The notes under the pieces: model-generated
Databases searched by the model: none
Told to the model about the DNA's origin: nothing
Seen by the model: only the letters and a program-made list of their open reading frames with translations
Position numbers and translations under genes: made by a program
Part shown: positions 2,049 through 43,692 of the stretch, one piece after another
Layout of the letters: every line of letters starts with the position of its first letter
How positions within the stretch are numbered: position 1 is the stretch's first letter
Origin: Deltaproteobacteria bacterium
GTDB lineage: Bacteria; Myxococcota_A; Polyangia; Fen-1088
Direction: 5' to 3'
Assembly (NCBI GenBank): GCA_033763315.1
Contig: JANRKS010000017.1
Coordinates: 97,597 to 161,596, forward strand
Length of the DNA: 64,000 bases

Positions 2049-2197
2049 CGCTGTGTGCCTGCGACACGCACGCGCAAAGCCGCAAAAAACGCACTTTTCC
2101 CAACTCTTGTCATAAAGACCGGCGTACACTTACCGTCGGTTTAGGTCGACCTGGCCACGGGCTGGGTGTTTGCAGGCGCTCGAACAGGGGAGTCGCG

Positions 2198-3337: not shown

Positions 3338-3353
3338 GCGGCAGCCAGCCAAC

Positions 3354-3797: not shown

Positions 3798-3919
3798 AAA
3801 GCTCCTCCATTACACAGGCAAAACCCGCGAAAAGGATTGGCCTTTCCCCAAGCTCGCGCCGTAAGGCTGCCGCATTTGAGGGGCAAAGTCCACTTTGCTG
3901 GCGAATATCGCGGGCTTTG

Positions 3920-4732: not shown

Positions 4733-4797
4733 TTACTTGTGTAACAGAAAAGCACAAAATGTATCGCCCGACAATGTGCATGTGATAGCCTTTTAAG

Positions 4798-5493: not shown

Positions 5494-5514
5494 AGCGCAC
5501 CAAAGTCGGCCGCT

Positions 5515-7278: not shown

Positions 7279-7308
7279 GGGAAGAAAACTTAGCGCTGCG
7301 CACTCTAT
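7279..7308 (+). promoter_or_regulatory. Putative ECF sigma promoter, copy 1
   Basis: GGGAAGA-N17-CTCTAT, ending 6 nt before the GTG start at 7315. Same spacing as three other copies in the locus. Confidence 0.7.
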
Positions 7309-7314
7309 CTTTGC

Positions 7315-8490
7315 GTGCAGAACAACGCTCGTCACGCAAGGTGCGCTTTGGCTTTCGCTTTCTTGATTGGTGCGTGCTCATCGCCGCCTCCGGAGCCCGG
7401 TTCGGGCGCGGGGGGCGCGGCGGCGGGCGGGGGTGCTGGTTCAGGAAACGGTTCGGCAGGATCCGGTGGTGCAAATTCTGGTTCAGGGGGGATGCCGCCG
7501 AGCGGCGGTAGCGGGGCCGCAGGCTCCTCGAACACAACGGGGGGCAGCGGAGGAGTTGCCTCTGCAGGCGTTCTTGGTCATCCAAAAGCGGGAACGACCT
7601 ATCCGGCGCGTAACGGCTTCACGCTGGCGCTGGTGGAGGAGTTCGATGCACCTCTTGATCTCGATAAGGATCCTATCTGGACGTGGTCTGACGGCGGGCT
7701 CTCCGAAGGCGCCGTGCGCTTTGTAAAAGACGCCATATCCTTTGAAGGCGGCATGATGAAGTTGACGGCGTCGAAGTCGCAGGTGCCGGGATCCGATTCT
7801 TATGCTGAACCTGTGTCGAATGCCCCCAAGGGCTTCGTTCCCCTTAAGCCCCTAAAAAGTGGTGAGGTGCGCTCGCGGTTCAACAACTTCCGCTATGGGC
7901 GATATGAGGTTCGCCTCAAACCTCCCACATCTGATGGCAACTTTATTTCCACGTTGTTCACGTTCCGCACGCCGAAATTCGAGGACTGGCGCGAAATCGA
8001 CATTGAGATCACGGCCGACAAACCCAACACCGTGGGCACCAATGTGATCTATGCCAACAACGTGGGGGCGTGGAACGCTTCCATTCAAGAATTCGTCACC
8101 GATTTTCCTGAGGGACCTGACGCAAAAGCGCTCCCTGCGGGTTTCTCACATCAAAACGAATTTCACGAATATGCGTTTGAGTGGTTGCCAGATTCCATCA
8201 CATGGTTCGTTGATGGCGTTCCCGTGCGCGTGAAGAAGGCGGGTGCGGGTCTGAAAATCCCCGAAAAATCGGCCAAGGTCATGATGAACTTGTGGATTTT
8301 TGCGACCTCGGGCGGCTTTGGCGGTGATCCCACAAAGAATGTTTACCCGATGACCGCCCAGTACGATTGGTTTCGGTATTACCGCTGGAACAACGACAAG
8401 GATTACCCTTGCGCCAATCCACCCGGTTGCTTGCCCGCTGACGATCTGAACAAGAGCAAGAATAACCCCGACGACGGCCTCACTCCCTAG
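7315..8490 (+). CDS. GH16 family beta-glucanase (lichenase-like), lipoprotein
   Basis: Catalytic WREIDIE motif; YGRYEVRLK; FHEYAFEWLPDSITWFVDG; lipobox LIGAC followed by a Gly/Ser linker. Confidence 0.9.
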   Translation: MQNNARHARCALAFAFLIGACSSPPPEPGSGAGGAAAGGGAGSGNGSAGSGGANSGSGGMPPSGGSGAAGSSNTTGGSGGVASAGVLGHPKAGTTYPARNGFTLALVEEFDAPLDLDKDPIWTWSDGGLSEGAVRFVKDAISFEGGMMKLTASKSQVPGSDSYAEPVSNAPKGFVPLKPLKSGEVRSRFNNFRYGRYEVRLKPPTSDGNFISTLFTFRTPKFEDWREIDIEITADKPNTVGTNVIYANNVGAWNASIQEFVTDFPEGPDAKALPAGFSHQNEFHEYAFEWLPDSITWFVDGVPVRVKKAGAGLKIPEKSAKVMMNLWIFATSGGFGGDPTKNVYPMTAQYDWFRYYRWNNDKDYPCANPPGCLPADDLNKSKNNPDDGLTP

Positions 8491-8498
8491 GCGTGGCT

Positions 8499-9134
8499 AT
8501 GCGCTGCTTTGTGCCGCTGCTTGCGGCCGGTGTTTGTGCGTGCGGCGCCGATGAAGCGCTCACACGCGTGAACCATCCGGGGCCGCTCGATGAAACGTTT
8601 GCTGTGTCGTCGTTCTTCACGCCCAGTGGCTACATGGGCGATGGCGAAAACCTGGGCTTGCTCAACGGGAAAGTGAACGAAGGTTGCAAAGCCCGGCCCA
8701 CGGGCGCCCAAGGCGATTGCTACGTATTCGAGTACCGCGTCGGCGCCCTTGGGTGGGCGGGCGTTTACTGGGTTTACCCTGCAAACAACTGGGGTTCGCG
8801 TCCTGGGCGCAAAGTGCAGGGGGCAGGGTTTAAGAACGTTCGGTTGAAGGCGGCTGTCGATCCGCCGGGAACCACAGTGAACTTCGTTGTGGGTGGCATT
8901 GCCGATCCGCTGTTGCCCCACCGCGACCGCGTGTCGGCGACGACGAGCGTGAAGCTGAGCAAGGACTGGACGGATGTGGAACTTGACATTGCGGGCCAAG
9001 ACTTCTCAGAAGTGATAGGCGCCTTGGCGTGGTCAATGGCCTATCCCACGGCGTTAGGAGATCGCGGTGTGGCGCGCGTTTACCTCGACGACGTGGTGTG
9101 GGACATCAACGCCAGCAAAGTTGCGGCACCATGA
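8499..9134 (+). CDS. Lipoprotein with putative carbohydrate-binding (jelly-roll) domain, paralog 1
   Basis: Lipobox VCAC; PSGYMGD...WAGVYWVYPANNWG motif; paralogous to 19941-20552. Confidence 0.65.
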   Translation: MRCFVPLLAAGVCACGADEALTRVNHPGPLDETFAVSSFFTPSGYMGDGENLGLLNGKVNEGCKARPTGAQGDCYVFEYRVGALGWAGVYWVYPANNWGSRPGRKVQGAGFKNVRLKAAVDPPGTTVNFVVGGIADPLLPHRDRVSATTSVKLSKDWTDVELDIAGQDFSEVIGALAWSMAYPTALGDRGVARVYLDDVVWDINASKVAAP

Positions 9135-10885
9135 GACATAGACTGGCGCTGCTGGTCGCTATCGGAGCCTGCGCCTGGGCGATTCCTGCGACGGCGCAAG
9201 ACGCAGAACACACGATGCAGAATCCTTACGCCTGTCTCGGCGCTTACGAGGCGGCGGCCAAGGACCACACCATCGCGCAAATGCGTGGTGAGTTAAAAGC
9301 GCTGTTGGCGCGCCAACTGGATGCAGATCTTGGGCGCGACACCTTGGCGGTGGACGCGTGCGTGATTGGTCGTTTGAAAGCCCGCCTCGGTGACGGTGAC
9401 GCGTGGGAGTTCTTCGAGCATGCGATTGCCTTGGCACCTCACGAGCCGGGGTTCGAGATGTTTGCTGGCGATTATTGGAGCGGTGTGCGTGGGGCGCATG
9501 GGCCTCTCGCCGCTCGCGCCGAAGATCGCTACCAAGCCGCGCTCACAAAACTGGCGACTTTGCGCGCGGAGGGTAGAGCGCGGCCGTTTCATGATTTGGT
9601 CGAAGAGTGGGTGACCAAACGCTTGATGGTGTTGCATCAGCAAGATGGCGTTGTATTGCTGCCGTGGGCCGATCCGGGGCCTGCCCGCTGGCGGCTGGCA
9701 CTTGGTAGCCAGTGGCGCGGCAGCGTTGACACGCGCGATTTCTTCTACAACAACGAGATGAGGCGCTTTGCGGCCGAGGTGATGTTTGCGAATTCCGACG
9801 TGCGCGCAAACGGAAAACTGAACGCGCGCGACGCATGGGACCTGGCGCGGGCGCCGTTGCGTTTGCAGATGGATAACAACTTGCGTCTGCGGCACGTGTG
9901 GGCCGGGCAATTCGATCTTGTGCATTCACAGCACGACGCGCGGCAAACGCAGGTTACAAACTTTTACGATCCCAACCAGATCTTCTCCGATGTGCAGGTA
10001 CAAGAGCTGGGCGGGGCTTACACGCAAGCGGTTGCGTTGCCCTGGGCGTTGGACGCGCGCTTGACGCTGGGCTACCGGCGCGTGGACCGCGTGGGCGTGA
10101 TCGAGTTTTGGCCCACCAAGCATGAGGCCTTCAATCTGTTCGAGGCACGGCCAAGCCTCGCGAAGTTTGTGGGTTCAAGCAAGGTGTCTTTGGACGGCGT
10201 CTACGTGCGCATGGATCTACCTGATACGACGGGGGTTCAGGATCAGCGCATGCGGCAAAAGGTGATTCGCGCGCTGGTGCTCGATTGGGCGATCTATGCG
10301 CCCGTGCCGTTGCCGAACGGCGATGCAGGCGTGCTTGGGTTGCGGCCGACGCCGATCCGAGGTTGGCACTTTTACGCCGGCGCGGCGCAAGACCAAGAGG
10401 TGTATGGCTTGCGCATGGTCACTTTTACCGACCTCTATGCGGGCACCAGGTTTGAAGGCAACGGCGTGTGGGATATCGGGTTGCAGGGCACGTACTTGTT
10501 AAGCCGCAGCACTTTGGTGGATGCCAACGATGTGCAATCGAAGCTTTATAGTGATCCGACGCAAGATTTCGACGGCGTGCAGCTGTCGCTGTTGCCACAA
10601 CTGCGCGTCGTGGATCCCGATGCCAAGCCTGGCACTTCAGTCGGGTTTTGGGCGCTTGATTCGCTGATGGTCGTGTTTCCGCTGCAGGCCAGCCTCACCA
10701 GCAAGGGCAACGATCAATTTCGCAACGTCCGCGGCGGCGCGCAGGCCTGGATGAAGCTGTTTGCCGGCCAGCAGGGCACGGCATTTTTGGTGACTGCGGG
10801 TGTGGACGTGCAACATTTCCCCGCGCTTGGCAAAACCATGGCGCTGGGGCAGGTGGCATTGCGAATGGGCTGGGGCGAGCTGTGA
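9131..10885 (+). CDS. Exported protein with N-terminal helical/TPR-like region and predicted C-terminal outer-membrane beta-barrel, paralog 1
   Basis: Signal peptide ending ATA-Q; ATGA overlap with the upstream gene; amphipathic strands; ends ALRMGWGEL. Confidence 0.65.
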   Translation: MRHRLALLVAIGACAWAIPATAQDAEHTMQNPYACLGAYEAAAKDHTIAQMRGELKALLARQLDADLGRDTLAVDACVIGRLKARLGDGDAWEFFEHAIALAPHEPGFEMFAGDYWSGVRGAHGPLAARAEDRYQAALTKLATLRAEGRARPFHDLVEEWVTKRLMVLHQQDGVVLLPWADPGPARWRLALGSQWRGSVDTRDFFYNNEMRRFAAEVMFANSDVRANGKLNARDAWDLARAPLRLQMDNNLRLRHVWAGQFDLVHSQHDARQTQVTNFYDPNQIFSDVQVQELGGAYTQAVALPWALDARLTLGYRRVDRVGVIEFWPTKHEAFNLFEARPSLAKFVGSSKVSLDGVYVRMDLPDTTGVQDQRMRQKVIRALVLDWAIYAPVPLPNGDAGVLGLRPTPIRGWHFYAGAAQDQEVYGLRMVTFTDLYAGTRFEGNGVWDIGLQGTYLLSRSTLVDANDVQSKLYSDPTQDFDGVQLSLLPQLRVVDPDAKPGTSVGFWALDSLMVVFPLQASLTSKGNDQFRNVRGGAQAWMKLFAGQQGTAFLVTAGVDVQHFPALGKTMALGQVALRMGWGEL

Positions 10886-10909
10886 GCCCTGCCGCGATTT
10901 GAAGGGGCG

Positions 10910-12715
10910 CTACTCGATCGGCAGGTAACAGCGGCGCGCATCGGCGTCGCATACTTCACCCGCGCCACAGCGTTCAACCGAGCCCGCAGGGGCGTCGGGA
11001 CGACAGCGCAATTGTTCCGTCCAAAAGCCTAGGTGGTTGTGTTGTTGCGGGGCCTGAAAAGGCAGCCATACCGGAGGCGATGACGGATCTTGCCCGGGCG
11101 CTAAGTTTCCCACGTTGATGGCGGCCATCCACAGCTGCGGCCAGCCGCTATTGGGTAAAATGCTATTGGGCACAACAAAGCCATAATCCGCGCGGGAATT
11201 GAAGGTGATGAACATGAGCTTGTTGTTGTCCTGTTGAAACGGCGCGAATTTCGGCCACGTGCTGGTCAGGTCGGTTCCAATGCTTGCGTTACGCATATCG
11301 AACACCTCGCCCGTGGCCACCTTGACCAGTCGCAAACGGCTATCGACGTTGTCGTAACTGCTACGACCCTCTTGCTTCTTTGCAGAGACGAAGGCTATCC
11401 ACTCACCGTCCGGAGACCACGTGGGGTAGTAGTGAAACAAATCCGTCGTCTCAGGAACCACGATTCTCCCTTTCCCAAAGGCGCTGTCCTTGAAGGGAAT
11501 CACGGCAATTGAGCCATTGAGCACAGACCAAGGCGTGACGTCGTTCGTGCTGACGGTAACCGACACAGAGTCCCCGCGCGGCGACCATTCGGGGAAAAAT
11601 ACCTTTCCTGTGAGTCCCGCGGCTTGCGGGTTAAGTTTCGTCACAAGGGCTCCGTCGGCGGTACGTAGAACTGAAAGTTGCCCGTTCGATAGCGTGGCGC
11701 GATCGTCGTAGCTCACGAGCACGAGATCCCCAAGCGGGCTAATGCTGCTCATGCTTGCCGGAACGGCCGCTTGGCTGCCAACAATAGGTGCGCCTGGATT
11801 ATCGGTAGGCCCTAAGTAAAGGCTGCCCCTTGACGTGCCAGTTGTGAGTGAGATCAGCATGCCGTTGCGGCTGACGGAATGGCATCCGCCGCACTCTGTT
11901 GGGTTCGCGGTGCTGGCAGGCGTGATGAATGGCGTTGCCTTCTTGCCACCGAACACCATCCGCGAGACGACCCCTGTTCGGGTGCCATCTTGCGACGACC
12001 AATAATAGAAACCTCCCATCACACTCTTGGGCGAAAAACGCAACTTCACCGGCTGTGAACGTGCGACGGCGCCACCCGCAATCTGGGCGCCCTCAATGGA
12101 GAGAAACAATGTGTGCCCTTTGTTGGCCGCGGACACGTTCTTCCAAAGCCATTCGGGCAAAGTGTAAGTGCACTGTTCTTGCGGCGGGGGTGGGCTTACA
12201 GGCTCCTGGGGCCCCCATTCCGGCCGCCTGCAAGGCAGGTAGAAGTCGTACGTCTGAGTGCCGGCGAGGTGGGCGTGAAAAAGCGTCTGTTGATCGCCCC
12301 TGGCACGCCACCACTGCAGTGTGATCTCTGGCAGGTTCGCCGGGTGCAACGCGCCCTCAAGGGGGTACACGATGCGTGGCGCCTGCGAAGCATCGGGGTC
12401 CGTGGGGCCGCCGAACGCATCAACCAATGAGCTTGAAACTTCGGGCGTGGCCACAAAGCAGCGCTCGCCACAATTCCACGCAGGCGTGGGTGGCACCGGT
12501 TCGTCGTCACAGCCAGGCGTGTTGGGCAGGCATGTGCGGGCGGCATCGAGAAAGTCAGGCAATGAGAACGCATCGCCTTCGGCGTCGGCCCTTGCCATCA
12601 TCCCGGCGTCTGCAACGGGCTCACCCACGACTTCCGTAATCCTTTGGCATTGCAGCTGCGTCAGGAGTGACGCAAGCGTTGTGGCACGCACAAGAAAAGA
12701 AGCGGTGGTTCCCAC
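10910..12715 (-). CDS. TolB-like (PD40/WD40-like) beta-propeller protein, paralog 1; start uncertain
   Basis: Repeats FPEWSPRG and YPTWSPDGEWIAFVS; WPKFAP; CGGCH; Cys-rich C-terminus. Start moved to GTG 12715 to avoid a long overlap with the upstream gene. Confidence 0.8.
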   Translation of the reverse strand: MGTTASFLVRATTLASLLTQLQCQRITEVVGEPVADAGMMARADAEGDAFSLPDFLDAARTCLPNTPGCDDEPVPPTPAWNCGERCFVATPEVSSSLVDAFGGPTDPDASQAPRIVYPLEGALHPANLPEITLQWWRARGDQQTLFHAHLAGTQTYDFYLPCRRPEWGPQEPVSPPPPQEQCTYTLPEWLWKNVSAANKGHTLFLSIEGAQIAGGAVARSQPVKLRFSPKSVMGGFYYWSSQDGTRTGVVSRMVFGGKKATPFITPASTANPTECGGCHSVSRNGMLISLTTGTSRGSLYLGPTDNPGAPIVGSQAAVPASMSSISPLGDLVLVSYDDRATLSNGQLSVLRTADGALVTKLNPQAAGLTGKVFFPEWSPRGDSVSVTVSTNDVTPWSVLNGSIAVIPFKDSAFGKGRIVVPETTDLFHYYPTWSPDGEWIAFVSAKKQEGRSSYDNVDSRLRLVKVATGEVFDMRNASIGTDLTSTWPKFAPFQQDNNKLMFITFNSRADYGFVVPNSILPNSGWPQLWMAAINVGNLAPGQDPSSPPVWLPFQAPQQHNHLGFWTEQLRCRPDAPAGSVERCGAGEVCDADARRCYLPIE

Positions 12716-12729
12716 GAGGTTGCCGGCTG

Positions 12730-14058
12730 TTACGGCCTCGTTAGAGCTTGCAACGATTCTTTGGCGTCTGCAACGTGTCGGCCCCGTGGATACTCCCTTA
12801 AATACTTGAGCCAGGCCACGCGTGCGTCTGGGCTCTTGAGCAGGCTCAAACAGGTGGCACGGTGAAAAGCCGCGTCGTCCTTGCTGGCCGGGGCGCCGGC
12901 CGAGATCAGTGACGTATCGTAATACCCAATGGCCACACCACAATTGCCCGCCGTGCGCGTGAGATCGCCTGCTACGCGTGCGACGTCCGAACGGCGTTCA
13001 CTGGCCGGAAAGCGACGCAGGAACGCTTGCGCTTCTGCAAGCGCTTCGTCGCGTCTACCTAAGGACGCCAACGTATCGACCAGTGATACGTCGGTTTCCA
13101 TGCGCAGCGAGCCTGCGGGAAAGCGCGTGCGGTACGTGCGCCACGTGGCCACGGCGCGACTCGGATCGCTTAGGTCTTCGCGGTAGATGGCGGCCATCTC
13201 GTAAAGTGCGTTTTGTGCGGCCAATCCTGATCCGCGGGCCAACCGTTGGTAAAGCGCCAGCGCTTCTTGCGGCTTATGGTTCGCACGCGCGGCTCGCGCG
13301 GCTACAGCCAAATGCTGCTCTTCGCTTGGTTCGGCTTTCGGCGCCATCATTGTGACTGGCACGCGTGGGGGGGGCGCGATGTCGATGTTGCGTGCGATGC
13401 TCCATGATTCGCCTGGTCCTAGACGCACCACGCGGCGCTGCTGCCAGATCTCCACCACCCCGTCTTGCACATCCACAGCCAGCCGGTTGGGTGAAGTATC
13501 AACAACGAAGCGCGTGCCTGCCACCTGCACGCGGTATTCGGCAAACTTAACGACGAAGCGGTGCCCGGAGGCTTGCGGAGGCACATCGAACGCCACTTTC
13601 CCGCTTTGCACCTCGGGCACGCCTTCGTGATCCAGATGCAACCGCGACGATGGCTGCACATCAGCTTTGGCGTTGCCAGCCACGATCCGCGTGATGCGCT
13701 CGTCGTTGGATGTTTGAATCGTCACGTCGGTAAGGGCCGGCGGCTCTTCTAAGCGTTCGATGCGCCGACGCTGTGGCGCTACCACGGGTGCCTGCGCCAC
13801 CACCGAAGTGTGACGTTGTTGCGAGATGTACATTGCCACGCCCGCCGTGCCACACGCCGCGGCCGCCAGGCTGGCCCACAACAGTGTTCGGCGCGGCGCT
13901 TGTGGCGCACGCAGCTGGGGCTCGATGCGAAGCCACAGACGACGCTGCCTGAGATCCGACGGCGGCCCCTGCCGTGCTTCATCCAAAGCTTGCCGCAGCC
14001 CTTGCGTCTGCGGGCTTGACTCGCCATCTGTCTCCAACCACCTGCCATCCCGCCTCAC
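12730..14058 (-). CDS. FecR-domain plus TPR protein, putative membrane-anchored anti-sigma factor
   Basis: TM segment LLWASLAAAACGTAGVAMYI; FecR motif VQVAGTRFVV...VDVQDGVVEI; C-terminal TPR-like helices ending YLREYPRGRH; GTGA overlap with the sigma gene. Confidence 0.8.
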   Translation of the reverse strand: MRRDGRWLETDGESSPQTQGLRQALDEARQGPPSDLRQRRLWLRIEPQLRAPQAPRRTLLWASLAAAACGTAGVAMYISQQRHTSVVAQAPVVAPQRRRIERLEEPPALTDVTIQTSNDERITRIVAGNAKADVQPSSRLHLDHEGVPEVQSGKVAFDVPPQASGHRFVVKFAEYRVQVAGTRFVVDTSPNRLAVDVQDGVVEIWQQRRVVRLGPGESWSIARNIDIAPPPRVPVTMMAPKAEPSEEQHLAVAARAARANHKPQEALALYQRLARGSGLAAQNALYEMAAIYREDLSDPSRAVATWRTYRTRFPAGSLRMETDVSLVDTLASLGRRDEALAEAQAFLRRFPASERRSDVARVAGDLTRTAGNCGVAIGYYDTSLISAGAPASKDDAAFHRATCLSLLKSPDARVAWLKYLREYPRGRHVADAKESLQALTRP

Positions 14059-14642
14059 GTCTCGTCCTCCTTGCACATCTTCTCCAGATCTTGTCGGGCG
14101 CGATGAATGCGCGTCCACACAGTGTTGGGTTTGCAGCCCATAACGTTTGCGATGTCGTTGACCTCCATGCCTTCGATCTCGAACAACGTCAAAGCCATGC
14201 GTCTATCGGGCGAAAGCCGCCCCAGTATCTGCTGCAGGTATCTTTGCCGGCTGGGAGCGTTTTCCCACCACGGGCCACCGGTTTGCAGCGCCGTGCGCTC
14301 ACGCACGAAGACGTCCGTCAACGCCCGCCGCAACCGGCGCCGCTTGGCAAAACGAATCGATTCACGAACGGTAAGCCGGTAGATCCAAGTGCTAAGCCGC
14401 GCGTCGCCGCGGAAATGCTTCAGGTACTTGTGCAGGAGCACGAAGATCTCTTGGCACAGATCGTCGGCTTCCGCTTCATGCACCCCGACCGTGCGCGCCA
14501 AGCGATCGATCATCGGAAAGTGATAATCGTAAAGCTGCCGCCAAGCCAGAGGATCCCCCGCCAGGCACGACCGAACCAGCGCCTGCTCGGCGTTGACGTC
14601 CGTTGATTTTGGACGCGGCGTGTGGGATGTGGCGGTGTTCAC
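14055..14642 (-). CDS. ECF-type RNA polymerase sigma factor
   Basis: Region 2: ADDLCQEIFV...FRGDARLSTWIYR. Region 4: LSPDRRMALTLFEIEG...EVNDIA...TVWTRIHRAR. Confidence 0.95.
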   Translation of the reverse strand: MNTATSHTPRPKSTDVNAEQALVRSCLAGDPLAWRQLYDYHFPMIDRLARTVGVHEAEADDLCQEIFVLLHKYLKHFRGDARLSTWIYRLTVRESIRFAKRRRLRRALTDVFVRERTALQTGGPWWENAPSRQRYLQQILGRLSPDRRMALTLFEIEGMEVNDIANVMGCKPNTVWTRIHRARQDLEKMCKEDET

Positions 14643-14658
14643 TTTGCGCTTAAACCGA

Positions 14659-14688
14659 TTAGAGGTGATGGCCCAAAGCTTCCTTCCC
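14659..14688 (-). promoter_or_regulatory. Putative ECF sigma promoter, copy 2 (autoregulatory position)
   Basis: Minus strand reads GGGAAGG-N17-CTCTAA directly upstream of the sigma gene. Confidence 0.75.
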
Positions 14689-14714
14689 GACCATTCAAAA
14701 TAAAGCGCGCCCGC

Positions 14715-15626
14715 TTAATTGATTCGGCCCCAGCCAAGCAAGAGCGCGCCGCCAGCGAGAGCACGCGGGGTGGCAAAAAGCGCATTGCCCTCGGTATCCT
14801 TGATGGAACGCGGCTGTATCGATAGGCCACCGTGAATGTCTAAGCCCACGACAACACTGTGAAAGGCCGCCAGCCAGCGAACCCGTGCTGTGGCGAAGGG
14901 TTCGGGGCGCCAGGCGCTTCCGGTCGGGATCTGTTGCACCCAATGAAGGCGCGCGCCCGCTTCCAGCGAAGGCGTCAGTGAGGACCAACGTCTGTTCCAC
15001 GGCAATCCCACCCCAAGCGACAGGCCCGCCGATTGTACCTTGATGGCGGTGCCCGTTGGCGCCGTGTCCGTGTGGGGAACCGCTAGATCCAACTGGCCTA
15101 GCCACGCCAGCCCCTGGGATTGCAACTGAAGCAACAAACCAGGTTCAATCGCCAACTTTTGAGCCCCGGCCACTGATGGCGTTGGGACGCGCACTGACCC
15201 TACGAACGCGACGGCAAGGGCCCTTACAGCCGGCATTGAGGGACGGATGCCAGGAGGGAGCTCGGCGTCTGTTCGCGGCGTAAGTGTCGTGGGAGCTCGG
15301 TAGTCGAAGTCATGTAGATAGCGCGTGACCACCAAAGCCACTGTGTCGGCCAGCACCTCGCACGCGCTGTTGCGAGCGTCGAAGCTGCGTTCAAGCACGG
15401 GTTCGTCGAGCTGGTTCCGCAGCGTGATGTTCAGTTGGTCGCCCAGTCGATAGAGCTCAAGGCGAAAGGCGCCACGATCAACTGTTGCTTTGCTTCGCTC
15501 GGCCAAAGCTGCCTGCACTTGCTGGGGCTGAGGGCAAGTGACGTCTGTGGCCACCACTTTTACGGCGGTCGCATCCAGCGCCGCCGAGAGGGTGATTGCG
15601 CCGCTGGCAAACAGCAACCAGAACAT
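14715..15626 (-). CDS. Hypothetical exported protein with predicted small C-terminal beta-barrel, upstream of the ECF sigma
   Basis: Signal-like N-terminus; CP...C domain; Pro/Thr linker; amphipathic strands ending ALLLGWGRIN. Confidence 0.6.
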   Translation of the reverse strand: MFWLLFASGAITLSAALDATAVKVVATDVTCPQPQQVQAALAERSKATVDRGAFRLELYRLGDQLNITLRNQLDEPVLERSFDARNSACEVLADTVALVVTRYLHDFDYRAPTTLTPRTDAELPPGIRPSMPAVRALAVAFVGSVRVPTPSVAGAQKLAIEPGLLLQLQSQGLAWLGQLDLAVPHTDTAPTGTAIKVQSAGLSLGVGLPWNRRWSSLTPSLEAGARLHWVQQIPTGSAWRPEPFATARVRWLAAFHSVVVGLDIHGGLSIQPRSIKDTEGNALFATPRALAGGALLLGWGRIN

Positions 15627-15798
15627 CGGCCCACCAGACTACACGAGCCAACGTGTGTCGCAAAGGCTCGCCGTCCGTCGAAGCGCAATTTCAAGCTGCG
15701 TGTTGAAGTTGGCCACAACGTGGCGTGAAAGCGTTTGCCTCGCGCATCTGCGCGGCAGTTGGCCGCGGCTCGATGGCCAGAGCCAATCGCCCTACACG

Positions 15799-17541
15799 TT
15801 AGTTCACCACACGGCCGCATTGGCCATTGTCGCAAACCTCCCCTTCACCACAGCCCGCGCCACCTTCCTTACGGCAAGCGACTTTCTCGGTCCAGTAGCC
15901 CAAGTGATTTTGCTGTCCGATGTCCTGGAAGGGCAGCCACACAGGGGGCAAGGATGGGTCGCCTGAGCCGAGGTTGCGCAAGTCAATCGCGGACATCCAC
16001 AACTGAGGACGAGCGTTGTCTTGCGTGGCGCTATTCTTTAGCATCACGCCGTAGTCGATCTTCGTGTTGTATGTGATGAACATCATCTGACCGCCGGCTT
16101 GTTGGAACGGTGCAAATTTCGGCCACGTGGATGTCTTACCTTTGCCCTGGGTCGCGTTGCCCAGTTCATAGATGGTGCCTCCGTCGCGGGACACCAATCG
16201 CAAACGGCTTTGCGGGTTGTCATAGCTTTTTACAAGCAGGGGCGCTGATGTGAAAGCGATCCACTTTCCATCAGGTGACCACGTTGGGTAAAAATGAAAG
16301 GCGTTTGCTTCCTTCGGCGCCACGATCTGTGCGGCGCCAAACTTGCCGTCGTTGTAGGGGAACACCACGATGTACCCGTTGTTTACGGACCAAGGGCGTT
16401 CATCCTGGTTTGCCAGCGTGGCCACAATCTCCTTGCCGTTGGGTGACCATTCAGGGAAGAACACGCGCGTTTCAGGCGTTCCTAACACCGACGGATTTAG
16501 CTGCGCCACCTCTTTTCCCGTATCCGTGTTCAACACCGCGATGCGACCGTTGCCCTTGGCATCGTTCTGGCCAAAGCTCACCATCACCAGTCGCCCGTCG
16601 GGGCTCAGCGTCGTGATGTGGCCATTGGATTCCGGCTTGGCTGGAGGATCGATCAACTTTGTCTTGGGATCATCGGTGAGGCTCACGGTCAAGTACCCGG
16701 CTTGTTCTGCGGCAAAGGCGATCACACGCCCGTCACGGCTCACGGCGTGGCAGCCGCCGCACATAAAGCGATTGGTGTCGCTCTCAGGTGTGATGAAAGG
16801 AACGGCTTTGCGTGCACCGAACACCAAACGGTACGTTCCCATCAGGGCTGTTGACCAATAGTAGAGTCCGCCGCGCACGGGATCGGGCGAAAAGCTGAAT
16901 GGCAATGGCTTGCTTGACCTTGCTTGAGTTCCGAGTTCGGTTACGACCACCTGCACGCGCTGACCACGGTTTGCCTTTGCCAAGGCCAGCCACGCGCCCG
17001 TGGGCAAGGTGGCGGCACACTCTGTATCATCTTGAGGGCCCAAGCCCGCTGCGGCCATCTCCTTGTCTTTGCAGGCCACAACGAAATCCCAGCGCGTCGT
17101 TTTCGATGCATCACTGAAAATGCGCACACGAAACGCTGTGTTATTCGCGTTTGTGGCCGTACGCCATTGCACGGTGATTTCCGGCAGATTCAGCGGATGC
17201 AAAGAATTAGCGAGCGGGTAGACAATCTCAGGACCCATGGCCGATGGTTCGTCATTTGCCGTCTTGGCCGTATTCACCGCACCTTCGCCACCAGGGACAT
17301 CGATGCCCAAGAAGCAATTGTCCCCGCAATTCCATTCAGCGGGTGGCAAGGGATCGTCCATGTCGCCACCCCCGCCCACCAGCCCCCCATCGCCGAAACC
17401 GACGAAGGGCGGAAAGTATCCGCCGTCTTTATCGAGGGGTAAACCGGATCCGCCCGCGCCTGCGTCGATGTCCAGAACCGCTGTTGCTTGCGAACAAGCA
17501 ACCAGAGCGAATAGCCCAACCAACAACCCGGTGCGCAGCAT
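15799..17541 (-). CDS. TolB-like beta-propeller lipoprotein, paralog 2
   Basis: AAAGGAG RBS; lipobox LVAC; FPEWSPNG and YPTWSPDGKWIAF repeats; CGGCH; similar along its length to 10910-12715. Confidence 0.85.
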   Translation of the reverse strand: MLRTGLLVGLFALVACSQATAVLDIDAGAGGSGLPLDKDGGYFPPFVGFGDGGLVGGGGDMDDPLPPAEWNCGDNCFLGIDVPGGEGAVNTAKTANDEPSAMGPEIVYPLANSLHPLNLPEITVQWRTATNANNTAFRVRIFSDASKTTRWDFVVACKDKEMAAAGLGPQDDTECAATLPTGAWLALAKANRGQRVQVVVTELGTQARSSKPLPFSFSPDPVRGGLYYWSTALMGTYRLVFGARKAVPFITPESDTNRFMCGGCHAVSRDGRVIAFAAEQAGYLTVSLTDDPKTKLIDPPAKPESNGHITTLSPDGRLVMVSFGQNDAKGNGRIAVLNTDTGKEVAQLNPSVLGTPETRVFFPEWSPNGKEIVATLANQDERPWSVNNGYIVVFPYNDGKFGAAQIVAPKEANAFHFYPTWSPDGKWIAFTSAPLLVKSYDNPQSRLRLVSRDGGTIYELGNATQGKGKTSTWPKFAPFQQAGGQMMFITYNTKIDYGVMLKNSATQDNARPQLWMSAIDLRNLGSGDPSLPPVWLPFQDIGQQNHLGYWTEKVACRKEGGAGCGEGEVCDNGQCGRVVN

Positions 17542-17589
17542 CGTTTCTCCTTTAGGTGCCAACAAGCAAGCCAAGAACTTGTTATCGAC

Positions 17590-17619
17590 TTGGAGGTGAA
17601 GCGCATGCGCAAACTTCCC
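17590..17619 (-). promoter_or_regulatory. Putative ECF sigma promoter, copy 3
   Basis: Minus strand reads GGGAAGT-N17-CTCCAA upstream of the gene starting at 17541. Confidence 0.68.
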
Positions 17620-17672
17620 GCGGCGTGAAGAAGCGTTGCTGATTCGCAAAGCGCAGATGTCGGTGCTTTTTC

Positions 17673-17702
17673 GGGAAGGTGCGAAGAAAGAGCTCTCTCT
17701 AA
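17673..17702 (+). promoter_or_regulatory. Putative ECF sigma promoter, copy 4
   Basis: GGGAAGG-N17-CTCTAA upstream of the operon starting at 17737; divergent from copy 3. Confidence 0.75.
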
Positions 17703-17736
17703 ACAAGCAAACGGTCAGCTTGGAAAGGACACCTCT

Positions 17737-18594
17737 ATGCGCTTTGCTTCTCTGCCTAAGGGCTTTTTTGTTGTTGCTTCATTGATTTGCACGACCGCTG
17801 CAGGGCTTTGGGGTTGCGGCGCTGCCGATCCCGCGCCCAGCACTGGTTCGGGAGGTGGAGGTGGTGCCGCTTCTTCTAACGGGGGTTCGTCAAACAATTC
17901 AGGAACTGGTGGATCGTCCACCAATACGGGCGGCAGCAATGCCCAAGGTGGAAGTGCCGGCGCGAGCCAGGGCACAGGGGGGACAACAACGTCAGGCACG
18001 GCCATCGCGTTGCCGCTTGTGGTTACCACTTTCTATAACAACCAGGGTTGGTTCGGTGACGAAGAGGTCAGCAAAGAGTTCAAACCTGGCACCACCATCA
18101 TCAAACAAGCGGATTCAACGTCAGGTCCGTGTGCGATGCGCCCGGCGAACGCGAAGGGGCGTTGTGTGAAGGTGGAATACGCGCCACCTGCGGGCCTCAA
18201 GGTTCCTACGGGCGGCGGCTACGTTGGCGTGTTCTTTCTTACCACCTTGGCCAAGGCGCATCCTGAGTTAATGCCGCCCGCGAAGGCGGGCGATGCCAAC
18301 TGGGGCGCTGAGCCCGGTAAAAACATCGCACCCGGTGCCACGAAGATTTCGTTCTCCGCGACATCCGAAACGGCCGGGGCTTCTGTCAGCTTCAAGGCCG
18401 GCACGAGCGGCACCGGTGGCGATATGTTCGTGGTGCCTGAGACACCCCAGACCTTAACCACGGCGTGGAAGGAATATGAACTACCGCTTGACGGCCAGCC
18501 TTACGGCAACAGCGTGGTTGGCGGCTTTGCTTGGGTCATTAAGGACACGACGAAGCCCGTCACGTTCTACCTCGACAACATCATTTGGCAGTAG
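17737..18594 (+). CDS. Lipoprotein with Gly-rich linker and putative carbohydrate-binding domain (divergent paralog)
   Basis: Lipobox LWGC; motifs GWFGD, ANWG, IAPGATKISF and FYLDNIIW, shared with 19941-20552 (IAPGATKITF, FFLDDLKW). Confidence 0.7.
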   Translation: MRFASLPKGFFVVASLICTTAAGLWGCGAADPAPSTGSGGGGGAASSNGGSSNNSGTGGSSTNTGGSNAQGGSAGASQGTGGTTTSGTAIALPLVVTTFYNNQGWFGDEEVSKEFKPGTTIIKQADSTSGPCAMRPANAKGRCVKVEYAPPAGLKVPTGGGYVGVFFLTTLAKAHPELMPPAKAGDANWGAEPGKNIAPGATKISFSATSETAGASVSFKAGTSGTGGDMFVVPETPQTLTTAWKEYELPLDGQPYGNSVVGGFAWVIKDTTKPVTFYLDNIIWQ

Positions 18595-18655: not shown

Positions 18656-19921
18656 ATGCATCGAAGGCTGTTTGTGATGCCGGTTTTTGTGGCGCTCATA
18701 TCTTGTGCGCCGAGCGTCGAAGGCACGCCACCCACCGAGCCCAATACCAACGGAGGACAAGGCGGCCAGAATGTGGCCACGGGGCAAGGCGGACAAACAC
18801 AAACCGTAGGCGGACAAGCTGGTGCTGCAAGCGGTGGAAGCGGAGGATCGACACAGGGAGGAGGCGCCGCAGGCTCAGGTGGCGTAGCGATGCCCAATAC
18901 GGGAGGCGCTGCGGGAAGTGTTTCCGTCACAGGGCCAAAGGACACGCGCGCCGTCGTGCGTGCATCAGTTTCCGGCTATGTGTTGCAAGTCGAGCGCAAG
19001 GGCGCTGATGGCAAAACGGCCACAGCCCCTTTTGATATGCGGGGGATCTGTTGGAGCCCCGCAGTCAAGGGTGGCGGACAACCAAACGACGCCGCGTTTG
19101 CCGAGTGGACTGACAAAGACTTCGCGCTGATGGAGGGCGCGAACATCAACACGGTCAAGTCTTACGGCGTCTTGAGTCGTCAGGTGTTGGACAAGATGCT
19201 GGCCCACGGAATCGTCGCCGTGGTGACCGTGCTTGTGCGTGCAGGAGACAACTATGCGGCGGCTGTAAACGCGATCAAAGATCACCCCGCCGTTTTGATG
19301 TGGTTGGTGGGCAACGAGTGGAACTACAACAACCTCTACGGCAGCTGCAATGGCGATGGTTGTTACGACGTTATCAACAACGCCGCCAAGGAAATAAAGC
19401 GGCTGGACCCAAACCATCCGGTGGCGACTTCGTTTGCGCCGCGAGGTGAGATTCCTACGGCCGATGATCTCAAACGGCTCAATGCCATCGATGTGTGGGG
19501 ACTCAATATCTATTCCCAGCCGGGCTTTTTCGGCCGGTTTAGCGCATGGAAGGCTCTTGGCGAGGAAACGGGCATCAAGAAGCCCTTCTTCATGAGCGAG
19601 TACGGTCTCGACGCGTTCGACGAAAAGCAGGGGCGCGAGAATCAACCGGGTCATGCGCAAGGCCTGCGCGTGCAAACGGCCGAGATACGGGCGCAGCTAA
19701 GTGCGCGCAACACAAACTTACCGTGCATCGGCGGGACGCCCTTTGAGTGGAGCGACGAATGGTGGAAGTCAGGCGCGCCGGGCAGCCAAGATCGCGGCGG
19801 CTTTCCCAACATAGGCGTGGCGATGGACCAGTTCGCAAACGAGGAGTGGTGGGGCGTTGTGGACATTGATCGCAAACCACGCACGGCTTACGGAGTCCTT
19901 CGCGACCTTTACGGCCGCTAG
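18656..19921 (+). CDS. Clan GH-A TIM-barrel glycoside hydrolase lipoprotein (GH2 TIM-barrel-like; possibly a GH158-type beta-1,3-glucanase)
   Basis: Acid/base motif WLVGNEWNY; nucleophile motif FMSEYG; FEWSDEWWK; NEEWWG; AGGAG RBS; lipobox LISC. Confidence 0.8.
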   Translation: MHRRLFVMPVFVALISCAPSVEGTPPTEPNTNGGQGGQNVATGQGGQTQTVGGQAGAASGGSGGSTQGGGAAGSGGVAMPNTGGAAGSVSVTGPKDTRAVVRASVSGYVLQVERKGADGKTATAPFDMRGICWSPAVKGGGQPNDAAFAEWTDKDFALMEGANINTVKSYGVLSRQVLDKMLAHGIVAVVTVLVRAGDNYAAAVNAIKDHPAVLMWLVGNEWNYNNLYGSCNGDGCYDVINNAAKEIKRLDPNHPVATSFAPRGEIPTADDLKRLNAIDVWGLNIYSQPGFFGRFSAWKALGEETGIKKPFFMSEYGLDAFDEKQGRENQPGHAQGLRVQTAEIRAQLSARNTNLPCIGGTPFEWSDEWWKSGAPGSQDRGGFPNIGVAMDQFANEEWWGVVDIDRKPRTAYGVLRDLYGR

Positions 19922-19940: not shown

Positions 19941-20552
19941 ATGCAAATCGGACGAGCGTCGTGCCCGTGGGGCCTGGCTTTACTCATGAGCGCTGGGTGT
20001 GGCGTGGAAGCCATCACCCCTCCCGCCGAACCCATCGCTTTGCCGATGGTGGTCTCGGACTTTTTCTCGCCCGACGGTTTTTGGGGCGACGGTGAAAAGC
20101 GTGGCTCGCTTGACCTACAGCGCGATTGCCCTTCGCGCGCCGCTGGCGCGGTGGGGGATTGTTACCGAGTGAGCTATCTGCCGGGGGCCAAGCGCTACGC
20201 GGGCATCAACTGGCAATACCCTCACAACAACTGGGGCTTCTGGCCGGGGCGAAAGATCGCTCCCGGAGCCACGAAGATCACGTTCAAAGCACGCGGTGCC
20301 AAGGGTGGCGAGGCTGTGGGTTTTGGCGCCGGGCAAGCAGACGACATGAACGGCTATGGCGATAGCTTCTCGATCTCTCCCCAAACCTTGCAGCTGACCA
20401 ATAGCTGGCAGTCGTTCAAGGTGGACTTCTTGGGTGAGGACTACGGGAGAAGCCCGAGCGGAGTCATTGGTGCGTTCATCGCGTCTCCCGCGCCGGGTGA
20501 AGGAGAAGAGCTGGTTGAATTTTTCCTTGATGATCTGAAGTGGGAACGATGA
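19941..20552 (+). CDS. Lipoprotein with putative carbohydrate-binding domain, paralog 2
   Basis: Lipobox SAGC; PDGFWGD...YAGINWQYPHNNWG...ITFKARGAKGGE motif. Confidence 0.7.
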   Translation: MQIGRASCPWGLALLMSAGCGVEAITPPAEPIALPMVVSDFFSPDGFWGDGEKRGSLDLQRDCPSRAAGAVGDCYRVSYLPGAKRYAGINWQYPHNNWGFWPGRKIAPGATKITFKARGAKGGEAVGFGAGQADDMNGYGDSFSISPQTLQLTNSWQSFKVDFLGEDYGRSPSGVIGAFIASPAPGEGEELVEFFLDDLKWER

Positions 20553-22285
20553 GCAAATTTTCACTGTGTCTGTTGCTGGGAATGCTCGGGTTCTCTTCAA
20601 CAGCGTTCAGCCAAGAGGCCACCCGAAGCAATCCGTTCGCGTGCTACGGTGCCGCAGAGTCGCTTGTGCAGGGCCTTTCGGCGGCGCAGATCGCCGATCT
20701 GGTCAAATCGCGGCTAGAGGCGCCGCCGTCAGCCACCGAAGGCACCTTCGACGCGGCCAACTGGCATTGCACCAATGGTGAATTGATGCGTCGGGTGGGT
20801 GACACACGTGCGGCCGCCTCGTACGCCAAGGTCATCGAGATCGATCCGCAAGAGCCTGGTTGGGAACTTTGGTATGGTTTGTACCTGCGCAACACACGCG
20901 GCGCGGCCCACCCGCTGCTCGAGCAGGCCGAAGTCCACTACTACGCGGCGCTCGCCAAACTCTCCGCGCTGGCGGAACGTGGTGCGGAAATGCCGTTTGA
21001 CGCCACCACGAAGGATTGGGTGCAACGTGGTCTCAATATTGTGTATGGCGAGGCGGGTCTGCCGCTGTTTGGGCGTGCATACCCTTACGACGGAGGCAAG
21101 CCGTTCTTGTCGGTGGCGTTTACCTCCATGCTGCGAACCTCGGTGGATACAAACGAGGCAGGCACAGTGGACGATGTGCGGCGGTTTGCTTCGGAGGCTT
21201 CATTCTCCATCTCGGCGCAGCGCTTGAACCGCGCGCTGACGCCGGCGGAGCTCGAAGGCATCGTTCGCACGCCCTTACGTTTGGATTTCTACAATCGGCT
21301 GCGTTTGCGTCTCGGACAGCTGGGTGCGATTGATGTTTCCTATGACGTGTTTCGCGCTTACAAGAGTCAAATCACGCGGTACACCGAACCCAACAACCTT
21401 GGCGACGTGTCGGTTGAACAAGCGGGACTATCTTTCCAACGCACGCTTGACCTCTATTCGCTGTTCGACCTGCATATTGAGGGCGGCTATCGACGCGTGA
21501 GCCGCGTGGGTGTGGTGGAATGGTTCCCGGATCTGCGCGAGAACATCAACATGTACGAAGCGCATCCCGCGATCTCACGCTTTTTGGGGCCCGACAAGCT
21601 GACGGTGGGCATGCACTATGTTTTTATGGACATTCCGTTTGTCCCCGGCGGTTTGCTTGAAGATCGCTTTCGCGAACGTGCGATACGCGCGTTCTATTTC
21701 GACTACGCCTTCTACCGCCCCTTGGTGTTGCCTGATCCCGATACCTGGCGCCTGCGTCGGCAATTTACCCGGGGCGTGCATGTGTATGGAGGCTACGCGA
21801 TGGACGATGAAGTGTGGGGCATCCGCGAAGTTCAGCGCCGGGACACTTACCTCGGCAGCACGTTCAAGGGCTTTGCCGGCTTCGATCTCACTTTGCAACT
21901 CACCACTTTGACGTCGCTCACCGACATCACGACATTTACGGGCGAATCCTATGTGGATCCGATTCAAACCAATAAGCACTTTCGGTCCACGGCCATCTTG
22001 CTTTACCGCATCGTCGACGAAGACACGATGCCTGGCATGCCAGCTTCGAGTTTGGCGATGATGAACCTGGTTTTTCCAGTGCGGGCCGACTTTACATACA
22101 AGGGCTGGAACGCCTATGAGAACGTTCGTGCCGGCGCCGAGTTGTGGAGCAAGTTCGTGTGGAAGGGCCTTCGCGGCACCAACTTCTTGCTGACCGCAGG
22201 CTACGACATTCAATACTTTCATCGCGTGGAGCGCCTTGTGCACATGGGCCATCTGGATTTGCGGATGGGATGGAACTACCTGTGA
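20549..22285 (+). CDS. Exported protein with TPR-like N-terminus and predicted outer-membrane beta-barrel, paralog 2
   Basis: Signal peptide ending AFS-Q; ATGA overlap; NPFACYGA vs NPYACLGA in paralog 1; ends DLRMGWNYL. Confidence 0.7.
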   Translation: MSKFSLCLLLGMLGFSSTAFSQEATRSNPFACYGAAESLVQGLSAAQIADLVKSRLEAPPSATEGTFDAANWHCTNGELMRRVGDTRAAASYAKVIEIDPQEPGWELWYGLYLRNTRGAAHPLLEQAEVHYYAALAKLSALAERGAEMPFDATTKDWVQRGLNIVYGEAGLPLFGRAYPYDGGKPFLSVAFTSMLRTSVDTNEAGTVDDVRRFASEASFSISAQRLNRALTPAELEGIVRTPLRLDFYNRLRLRLGQLGAIDVSYDVFRAYKSQITRYTEPNNLGDVSVEQAGLSFQRTLDLYSLFDLHIEGGYRRVSRVGVVEWFPDLRENINMYEAHPAISRFLGPDKLTVGMHYVFMDIPFVPGGLLEDRFRERAIRAFYFDYAFYRPLVLPDPDTWRLRRQFTRGVHVYGGYAMDDEVWGIREVQRRDTYLGSTFKGFAGFDLTLQLTTLTSLTDITTFTGESYVDPIQTNKHFRSTAILLYRIVDEDTMPGMPASSLAMMNLVFPVRADFTYKGWNAYENVRAGAELWSKFVWKGLRGTNFLLTAGYDIQYFHRVERLVHMGHLDLRMGWNYL

Positions 22286-24618: not shown

Positions 24619-25415
24619 AGGGGGGCGCCATTTTACCCACCCTGATTTTGTTGACCGTCGGCGCTTGCGGCGGCAGTGAACCGATCAACGAGTGGATCCC
24701 CACGTTTGCGGATGAGTTCGATGGACCAGCCGGGCCTCCGGACGTATCCAAGTGGACGCCGGAGGTCAATGGTCGTGGCGGGGGCAACCAAGAGCTTCAA
24801 TTCTACTCCGACCGACCCGACAACCTGCGCGTGAACGGGATGGGTCAACTGTCGATCACCGCGCGACGCGAGGCCTTCGAGGCGCGCGACTTTACCTCGG
24901 CGCGGATCAACACGCAGGGCAAGTTCGAGCAACAGAACGGCCGCTTTGAGACGCGCATGAAGCTGCCCAAAGGCAAGGGCTACTGGCCGGCGTTTTGGAT
25001 GTTGGGAGGCAATTTCGACGACATTGGCTGGCCCAAATGCGGGGAGATCGACGTCATGGAAAACCGCGGTGCCATTCCCTCGACAGTGCTTAGTTCTTTG
25101 CACGGACCTGGCTATCAAGGTGGCAACGCAATCACGGAGCTCTTTCGTCTGAACGAGGGGACGTTTGCCGATGAATTTCACGTGTTCAGTGTGGAATGGG
25201 AAGCCGAACGGATTCGCTTCTCTGTCGACGGAACCAGCTATCACACTGTTGAACGCGCTGGCATGCGCTCTGGTGCCACTTGGGTGTTCGACCACCCATT
25301 TTTCATGATTTTAAACCTTGCGGTGGGGGGAACGTTTGGTGGTGAGCCAAACGCCGACACCGTGTTTCCCCAAGAGTTGCTGGTGGATTGGGTGCGCGCC
25401 TACCGTCGCCGGTGA
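24615..25415 (+). CDS. GH16 laminarinase-type endo-1,3-beta-glucanase, lipoprotein
   Basis: Motifs WPAFWMLG, WPKCGEIDVME and ILNLAVGG; lipobox VGAC. Confidence 0.93.
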   Translation: MKGGAILPTLILLTVGACGGSEPINEWIPTFADEFDGPAGPPDVSKWTPEVNGRGGGNQELQFYSDRPDNLRVNGMGQLSITARREAFEARDFTSARINTQGKFEQQNGRFETRMKLPKGKGYWPAFWMLGGNFDDIGWPKCGEIDVMENRGAIPSTVLSSLHGPGYQGGNAITELFRLNEGTFADEFHVFSVEWEAERIRFSVDGTSYHTVERAGMRSGATWVFDHPFFMILNLAVGGTFGGEPNADTVFPQELLVDWVRAYRRR

Positions 25416-43686: not shown

Positions 43687-43692
43687 CTCCTG

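Follow-up and report, generated by a model that had tools for sequence, protein, structure and literature searches.

A conserved bipartite promoter-like motif and a candidate cognate ECF sigma factor at a predicted β-1,3-glucan degradation locus in a Polyangia bacterium

The window, which is the whole 64,000-nucleotide stretch of DNA analysed here, contains a predicted β-1,3-glucan degradation locus that includes a sigma factor gene (Table 1). The sigma protein has 195 residues and matches regions 2 and 4, in keeping with the ECF (group 4) factors, which are ~200 residues long and possess these two regions alone. The stop codon of its gene is overlapped by the gene for a predicted anti-sigma protein made up of a small cytoplasmic portion, a single segment of moderate hydrophobicity, a FecR domain and TPR repeats. 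A gene for a PD40 propeller follows that of the anti-sigma protein and occupies the same place in most of the orthologue loci whose DNA extends far enough. The gene for a small predicted barrel protein lies directly upstream of the sigma gene both in the resident sigma clade and in its sister clade. The structural model of this protein (pLDDT 87.6) was matched by structure comparison with OmpW and NspA (Z 16.6) and with the TolB N-domain (Z 9.7). The lipoprotein encoded at 17737 found no match in Pfam or PDB. Ten TonB-dependent receptor barrel matches were recorded genome-wide with none on contig C17, no Ser/Thr kinase was present among the 47 window proteins, and no kinase motif was found in the 90-135 kb interval of C17.

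Table 1. Predicted genes, motif sites and transcription start positions at the locus (window coordinates).
Feature	Position	Strand	Remarks
Site 1	7279..7308	+	Predicted ECF promoter; -35 GGAAG, -10 CTCTAT; profile score 23.5
Site 1 predicted +1	7315	+	First base of GH16 GTG
GH16 lipoprotein	7315..8490	+	Nearest 1,3-1,4-β-glucanases
Small lipoprotein	8493..9134	+	Homologue of 17737 binding-module-like protein (tblastn cross-matches)
TPR + β-barrel protein	9131..10885	+	Paralogue (35%) of 20549 protein
PD40 β-propeller protein	10910..12943	-	Downstream of anti-sigma; longest frame, true start further in, uncertain
Predicted anti-sigma	12730..14058	-	Pfam FecR 2.6e-9, TPR_6 2e-6; hydropathy
ECF sigma factor, 195 aa	14055..14642	-	Pfam Sigma70_r2 + r4_2; TIGR02937 71.2 bits (cut-off 42.9)
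Site 2 predicted +1	~14652	-	10-nt leader
Site 2	14659..14688	-	Predicted autoregulatory promoter, sigma gene; profile score 21.7
Small predicted outer-membrane protein	14715..15626	-	TolB-N-like α/β domain, linker, 8-stranded OmpW/NspA-like barrel
Second PD40 β-propeller lipoprotein	15799..17541	-	
Site 3 predicted +1	~17583	-	
Site 3	17590..17619	-	Predicted promoter, propeller lipoprotein + small barrel genes; score 15.1, lowest of four
Site 4	17673..17702	+	Predicted promoter, seven-gene glucanase operon; score 18.2; back to back with site 3
Site 4 predicted +1	~17709	+	
Lipoprotein, predicted glycan binder	17737..18594	+	Galactose-binding-like/CBM30-like domain; Atlas features/structure, lead only
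GH158-like TIM-barrel lipoprotein	18656..19921	+	Pfam Glyco_hydro_2_C; best PDB match GH158, E 2.8e-10
Third binding-module-like lipoprotein	19941..20552	+	
TPR + β-barrel outer-membrane protein	20549..22285	+	PgaA/NfrA-like architecture; Atlas, low-confidence model
GH81 endo-β-1,3-glucanase homologue	22282..24618	+	E 4.9e-151
GH16 laminarinase homologue	24615..25415	+	E 1.7e-70
GH9 glycoside hydrolase	25496..27379	+	80-nt gap after previous gene; operon membership inferred

The window possesses exactly four matches to GGGAAG-N18-CTCYAW compared to none in 100 dinucleotide shuffles, in agreement with the four sites described in an earlier note on this DNA. The spacers are unrelated, as also claimed there, and each site faces the gene that follows it. 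An open frame of 635 codons beginning at TTG 17706 overlaps with sites 3 and 4. The most likely start of the propeller-lipoprotein gene is ATG 17541, which has an AGGAG ribosome site ahead of it, and the intergenic placement originally assigned to both sites is therefore upheld. The GH16 transcript was suggested previously to be nearly leaderless. In the numbering of Todor the predicted start for site 1 is the GTG at 7315 itself and the transcript would thus have no leader. Genome-wide, the original pattern gave eight matches with the 18-nt spacer, and 16 alternative spacers gave 0-3 matches apiece (14 in total). The bipartite nature of the motif holds, although GGAAG(A/G)A-N16/17-C(T/C)C(T/C)A(A/T) is a better description than the original consensus: this refined pattern occurs four times at the right spacer and not at all at 34 other spacers. 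As the original pattern derives from the same four sites, the window statistics are overstated and independent support comes from relatives. Between positions 7000 and 26999, a scan for the sigma-70 consensus detected one site compared to 5.0 expected, and terminators were at background level.

Selection of four chance matches after the fact might be suspected both because the pattern was defined from those sites and because 5-30 genome matches per spacer are found as background at profile scores of 15-18. Apart from the spacer specificity of the refined pattern, this explanation is contradicted by conservation of the motif in relatives, which leaves it scarcely credible. A profile (GGAAG(A/G)A, 18-19 nt, CTCTAA) trained solely on sigma promoters of relatives, with the present genome excluded, recovered all four window sites. 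The same profile located the motif upstream of orthologous sigma genes at 26 of 26 held-out loci, each scoring above all 100 shuffles, although 26 overstates the independent count because some of these loci are nearly copies of training loci. By comparison, 0 of 7 distant sigma homologues beat their shuffles. Site 2 is conserved in all 20 orthologue loci of the genomes, with sites chosen by requiring GGAAG. The motif carriers form a single clade of 34 rows with support of 100/100, and the resident sigma lineage is patchy, being present in 18 of 89 genomes. Site 4 has motif-like counterparts ahead of 15 of the 15 first-gene homologues that have upstream DNA, 14 of which beat all 30 shuffles. 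The sequences thus show the motif, where it lies, and its retention alongside both the sigma clade and one of the targets. No counterpart of site 1 was evident upstream of the two GH16 homologues that were examined, and no site heads the GH81 operon of one relative (G009).

A genome-wide motif scan returned the four local sites and also further copies outside the window; the regulon as outlined in the earlier note had been under-drawn. Perfect copies at C5:139639-139668 and C21:57828-57857 of this genome (G000) both score 26.0, which is the best in the genome. One precedes a gene for a GH26 β-1,3-xylanase-like lipoprotein and the other lies upstream of an orphan ECF sigma gene at C5:139052. 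The regulon likely extends to these two other contigs. Two weaker CTCCAT matches are antisense and within coding sequence. A comparison with 88 other genomes of the family at E 1e-30 yielded no homologue of the GH26 protein, and hence its site cannot be footprinted. Like the GH26 gene, motif-preceded genes elsewhere often are carbohydrate genes: the motif stands ahead of genes for a GH149 phosphorylase and MFS protein in G011, a ROK protein and ABC transporter in G012, and a GH3 enzyme in G056. Several strong matches in relatives have no convincing gene downstream, and an Rfam search with a conserved non-coding stretch produced no match.

Alignment to 1OR7, on which the residue-to-base mapping depends, equates Trp176, Thr177, His180, Arg181 and Arg97 of the resident sigma factor with RpoE residues 171, 172, 175, 176 and 84, respectively. 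Dataset S3 of Todor et al. (2020; PMC7776599) records a preference of Trp at 171 for -31G (0.92, the top value among the 20 residues), of Thr at 172 for -34G (0.74) and of Arg at 84 for -12C (0.49 summed). The motif bases fit these residues clearly at -31G and -34G, and weakly at -12C for which there is a counter-example. In 14 of 15 loci, the sister sigma clade displays TGA(C/T)GAA equally far from an identical -10 box, and the -35 half of the motif varies along with the sigma recognition helix. The code is inexact: Arg176 pairs with TGAAG in loci L073 and L074, and Arg84 with GGTCTAA in the clade of the C5:162203 sigma of this genome. The idea that residue 176 acts as a clean switch between two states was considered and is weakened by counter-examples. 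The motif might instead be an ordinary transcription-factor operator, or a conserved element unrelated to promoters, insofar as initiation at the sites is a prediction from sequence. However, the motif is neither a palindrome nor a direct repeat, its free spacer is fixed at 18-19 nt in keeping with ECF geometry, it is always gene-facing, and its -35 half follows the sigma helix, which together make either reading very improbable.

The genome has 79 sigma region-2 matches and the promoters conceivably could be read, wholly or partly, by a different ECF factor, namely the sister paralogue at C19:377401, the Trp171 protein at C2:50347 or the orphan at C5:139052. The C19 paralogue has the -10 box CTCTAA in common with the resident sigma promoters, but its clade uses its own -35 box and attains profile scores of 11.4 or less. 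The C5 protein, despite the perfect site upstream of its gene, is ruled out as the reader by its differing residues (Tyr-Asn at 171-172 and Asn84) and by the motif being found in 0 of 19 relatives. A distant Trp171 sigma factor in G013, 37% identical to the resident protein, carries the almost identical promoter GGGAAG-N17-CTCTAA, and therefore other Trp171 factors can share this promoter type. The G013 genome, in which the orthologous sigma factor was not found, also has the motif ahead of a binding-module gene. Nevertheless, the motif tracks the resident sigma clade, and reading by another factor is unlikely. The combination of Trp171-Thr172-Arg176 with Arg84 is confined to the resident protein among 82 candidates in the genome, and only its own upstream region and one other exceed a score of 7 when 79 sigma upstream regions were assessed. 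Matches to the resident sigma factor outside the home family reach at most 163 bits compared to at least 295 bits inside the clade. Overall, the interpretation of the sites as ECF promoters put forward in the earlier note is supported by conservation with sigma orthologues, the differing -35 box of the sister clade, the residue-to-base code and the uniqueness of the resident factor. The four sites very probably serve as -35/-10 promoters for the sigma factor whose gene lies at 14055-14642, and are predicted to drive its own operon and three other units.

We infer a circuit in which the co-encoded FecR/TPR membrane anti-sigma likely holds the sigma factor until an envelope signal, probably a β-glucan fragment judging from the targets, frees it. 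The released factor would direct RNA polymerase to GGAAG(A/G)A-N16/17-CTCTAA. Firing of site 2 would amplify production of the sigma factor itself, and sites 1, 3 and 4 would induce the glucanases, binding lipoproteins and barrel proteins. The two remote sites may add the β-1,3-xylanase-like enzyme and the second sigma factor. A fuller scenario is tentative. The locus may be a myxobacterial polysaccharide utilization locus free of SusC/SusD in which a β-1,3-glycan signal passes through the small OmpW-like barrel, with its TolB-N-like periplasmic domain, and the propeller lipoprotein to the FecR/TPR anti-sigma and thence to the self-amplifying sigma factor. The latter possibly was duplicated from a family-wide paralogue, acquired a private -35 box, and later recruited an imported β-1,3-xylanase and a second sigma factor, which would make a cascade, along with a structured small RNA in one genus among the relatives.

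The arrangement resembles the autoregulated local ECF regulons described by Todor et al. (2020; PMC7776599), in which a bipartite promoter likewise precedes the sigma gene and a few neighbors, and with which the patchy distribution and residue-to-base code also agree. Here, a fixed-spacing motif precedes the sigma gene and is conserved in orthologues. GGAAG and CTCTAA are absent from the eight supplements to that study that were searched (PMC7776599); its promoter collection (Datasets S1 and S2) could contain them. Group ECF267, which was described from Sorangium and Chondromyces, shares with the present system a myxobacterial origin, a FecR-TPR anti-sigma at +1 and the lack of a TonB-dependent receptor, but its description includes one to three protein kinases among the neighboring genes, with none found here, and a target promoter that is not conserved, in contrast to the strong conservation observed here (Casas-Pastor et al., 2021; PMC7826278). 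In the text of that publication, GGAAG and CTCTA each occur at least once, in both cases for other groups. Trans-envelope signaling at polysaccharide utilization loci of Bacteroides similarly places linked glycan-degrading and surface-binding genes under an ECF factor and FecR-type anti-sigma (Martens et al., 2009; PMC2709373). However, a SusC-like TonB-dependent transducer is linked at those loci (ECF240, ECF243) and none is linked here, although one may act from elsewhere. Moreover, the Bacteroides sigma genes have housekeeping-type promoters in 24 of 26 cases and are not autoregulated, whereas the motif before the resident sigma gene suggests that it drives itself (PMC2709373). Dma1/Das1 of Bacteroides thetaiotaomicron also is an ECF switch with an outer-membrane component, but Dma1 is one protein across both membranes and here the predicted barrel has a gene of its own, which precedes the sigma gene (PMC10927553). 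DdvS/DdvA of Myxococcus xanthus matches in being a myxobacterial ECF system that has four local promoters and a membrane anti-sigma containing TPR repeats; DdvA differs in its zinc anti-sigma and CHAT protease domains and in controlling a defence island, compared to the FecR domain and the predicted control of glycanases here (PMC11506125). Literature searches brought up no publication that deals with this motif or with an ECF-controlled glycan regulon in Myxococcota.

Autoregulated local ECF regulons are a familiar type of circuit, and the locus is less surprising for that; the motif appears uncatalogued and no TonB-dependent transducer is adjacent. The analysis provides a precise candidate promoter and a coherent β-1,3-glucan regulon for an ECF lineage outside the published group descriptions that were compared. 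It also points to FecR-type control of a glycan locus that shows apparent autoregulation and lacks a linked TonB-dependent transducer, in contrast to the Bacteroides model. With GGAAG versus TGAYG ahead of the same -10 box, the paralogue pair offers a natural case on which to test the ECF recognition code and may supply an orthogonal part. The motif is also a handle with which uncharacterized lipoproteins and barrel proteins may be placed in glucan use.

The motif GGGAAG-N18-CTCYAW, which the earlier note had placed at four positions in the window, was confirmed at each of these coordinates and was absent from 100 dinucleotide shuffles. The genome scan that the note had proposed was run on the source genome (7.63 Mb, 60.6% GC) and returned eight matches at a spacer of 18, with 0-3 at each of 16 other spacers. 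Of the eight, four are in the window and a pair stands ahead of genes on contigs C5 and C21; the remaining two are weak and lie antisense within coding sequence. The refined form GGGAAG(A/G)A-N16-CTCTA(A/T) matched four times in the genome at the N16 spacer and never at 34 other spacers. As the original pattern was derived from sites 1-4, its counts in the window and genome overstate the case by themselves, and support was tested in other genomes.

Orthologues of the resident sigma factor (E 1e-50) are present in 18 of 89 family genomes, the source genome included, and are absent from both of its congeners. All 20 other orthologue loci possess a GGAAG box, which was required in choosing the sites, together with a box resembling C(T/C)C(T/C)A(A/T), ~100-185 nt ahead of a conserved core; the spacer is 18 in 10 loci, 19 in nine and 17 in one. 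A profile was trained on 18 distinct sites from the relatives with the source genome left out, and was applied to 33 of 41 metagenome loci, eight having been dropped as partial, very distant or devoid of upstream DNA. The 26 loci with at least 49% identity, some of which are near copies of training loci, all outscored 100 mononucleotide shuffles, as did none of seven distant loci. The motif carriers form one 34-row clade (support 100/100) in a 77-row tree, beside a family-wide sister group in which 14 of 15 loci bear TGA(C/T)GAA, spaced as in the carriers from a similar -10 box. The sister motif, TGACGAA-N16/17-C(T/C)CTAA, occurs in the source genome at the sister sigma gene itself (C19:377403) and at C35:54821 and C2:396087, three occurrences that may outline a separate small regulon.

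Alignment with Escherichia coli RpoE (1OR7, allowing for an inferred three-residue tag offset in its numbering) equates Trp176, Thr177, Arg181 and Arg97 of the resident sigma with RpoE positions 171, 172, 176 and 84. In Todor et al. (2020; PMC7776599), Dataset S3/Table S1 links Trp at 171 to -31G (0.92) and Thr at 172 to -34G (0.74), and Arg at 84 is linked to -12C (0.49, with large errors). The motif bases at -31, -34 and -12 are G, G and C, matching these preferences. Among 82 sigma candidates in the source genome, only the resident protein combines Trp171, Thr172, Arg176 and Arg84, and a score above 7 was reached by just two of 79 sigma upstream regions, its own and that of the orphan sigma gene on C5. 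The C5 sigma was considered as the reader of the motif and rejected: its residues differ and the motif is present in 0 of 19 relatives, and it is therefore more likely a target than a reader. The recognition code is inexact: Arg176 occurs with TGAAG in two loci, in another clade Arg84 goes with GGTCTAA, and genome G013 has a distant Trp171 sigma that carries GGGAAG-N17-CTCTAA. Trp171 accompanies -31G in the wider family as judged by eye rather than tallied. Thus, motif conservation, the fit of residues to bases and the uniqueness of the sigma uphold the earlier reading of the sites as ECF promoters of one regulon, that of the resident sigma, which we regard as very probably correct on these comparative grounds.

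Motif sites, predicted transcription starts and associated genes
Site	Location	Profile score	Predicted +1	Genes or feature behind the site
1	7279-7308 (+)	23.5	7315	lichenase-like GH16, small lipoprotein, TPR-barrel protein
2	14688-14659 (-)	21.7	14652 (leader 10 nt)	resident sigma (14055-14642), FecR/TPR protein, PD40 propeller protein
3	17619-17590 (-)	15.1	17583 (A)	second propeller lipoprotein, small barrel protein
4	17673-17702 (+)	18.2	17709 (A)	CBM30-like lipoprotein, GH158-like enzyme, another small lipoprotein, TPR-barrel protein; last genes GH81, laminarinase-like GH16, GH9
Remote, perfect	C21:57828 (L104, 57828-59158)			GH26 lipoprotein
Remote, perfect	C5:139668 (L105, 139052-139668)			orphan ECF sigma gene
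Relative G011	L003:11348-16212			GH149 beta-1,3-oligosaccharide phosphorylase, MFS sugar transporter
Genus g15 (G054, G055, G016, G056)	L086:2343, L088:2080, L090:2421, L093:6551			~250-nt conserved stretch

Starts were predicted by counting the final base of the motif as -7 and may be off by one or two bases. The GH16 transcript had been described as nearly leaderless; as the predicted start falls on the G of the GTG codon, the transcript would be fully leaderless. The predicted starts of sites 3 and 4 are followed by purine-rich ribosome sites, and these divergent leaders (17545-17583 and 17703-17725) each open by eye with a short inverted repeat containing AACAAG or CAAGC.

The gene set of the four units points to beta-1,3-glucan as the substrate, the CBM30-like label being a lead only. 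The FecR/TPR protein has one candidate membrane segment. The small protein of the site 3 unit is predicted to join a TolB-N-like domain to an eight-stranded OmpW/NspA-like barrel. This N-domain resembles the TolB N-terminal domain and the neighboring lipoproteins have TolB-like propellers, as if the two halves of TolB were split over separate proteins (14715-15626; 15799-17541). TonB-dependent barrels gave 10 matches in the genome and none on the window's contig. One homologue carries the name of a Polyangia bacterium. Sugar catabolism genes (FGGY kinase, class II aldolase, xylose-isomerase-like; 555-7086) adjoin site 1 and are faced by no motif copy. Elsewhere the window holds three DUF1592/DUF1552 gene pairs (27386-30531, 37738-40850, 60238-63331) and an operon of multiheme cytochromes (43072-49113).

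The regulon is probably wider than the four sites of the locus and takes in the remote sites on C5 and C21, the two top-scoring sites in the genome. The GH26 lipoprotein is nearest to beta-1,3-xylanase (E 5e-54); a search of the 88 other genomes of the family at E 1e-30 gave no homologue, and it possibly is a recent recruit. No anti-sigma gene lies behind the orphan ECF gene, and a sigma cascade is possible. Among 17 homologues of the site 4 gene in nine other genomes, two lack upstream DNA; the other 15 all have a GGAAG-N18/19 site (scores 10-24), 14 of which outscore 30 shuffles. The orthologous sigma is found in eight of the nine genomes and was not found in G013 (92% complete, 620 contigs). 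The motif is absent upstream of both GH16 homologues checked and from the GH81 operon of genome G009. In relatives it also precedes a ROK regulator with an ABC transporter, GH3, and GH149 with its transporter; other matches there lack a convincing downstream gene. The g15 stretch is predicted to form long stems, with two-sided change at 7 of 96 pairs in four sequences. It has no convincing shared gene, Rfam match or homologue in the source genome, and is a candidate small RNA of this regulon.

This motif did not turn up in searches of the accessible ECF promoter literature and supplements, Todor's two largest datasets apart. In its predicted mode of action the locus resembles an autoregulated local ECF regulon. 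In purpose it is akin to trans-envelope control of Bacteroides PULs (PMC2709373), from which it differs in having no linked TonB-dependent transducer and in its apparent autoregulation. Among the described groups, ECF267 comes closest in architecture, but it is described with protein kinases nearby and without a conserved promoter, whereas at this locus no kinase was found and the promoter is strongly conserved (PMC7826278). The circuit type is already known, and the motif and combination of features are a variant on it. The resident sigma likely is held inactive by the FecR/TPR protein and freed by an envelope cue. The small barrel gene lies directly upstream of the sigma gene in both clades, with weaker homologues beside other sigma genes of the source genome, and propeller genes lie beside most orthologue loci and not beside the sister loci fetched; either protein could relay the signal. 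Once free, the resident sigma would amplify itself via site 2 and then induce the glucanase, binding and barrel genes.
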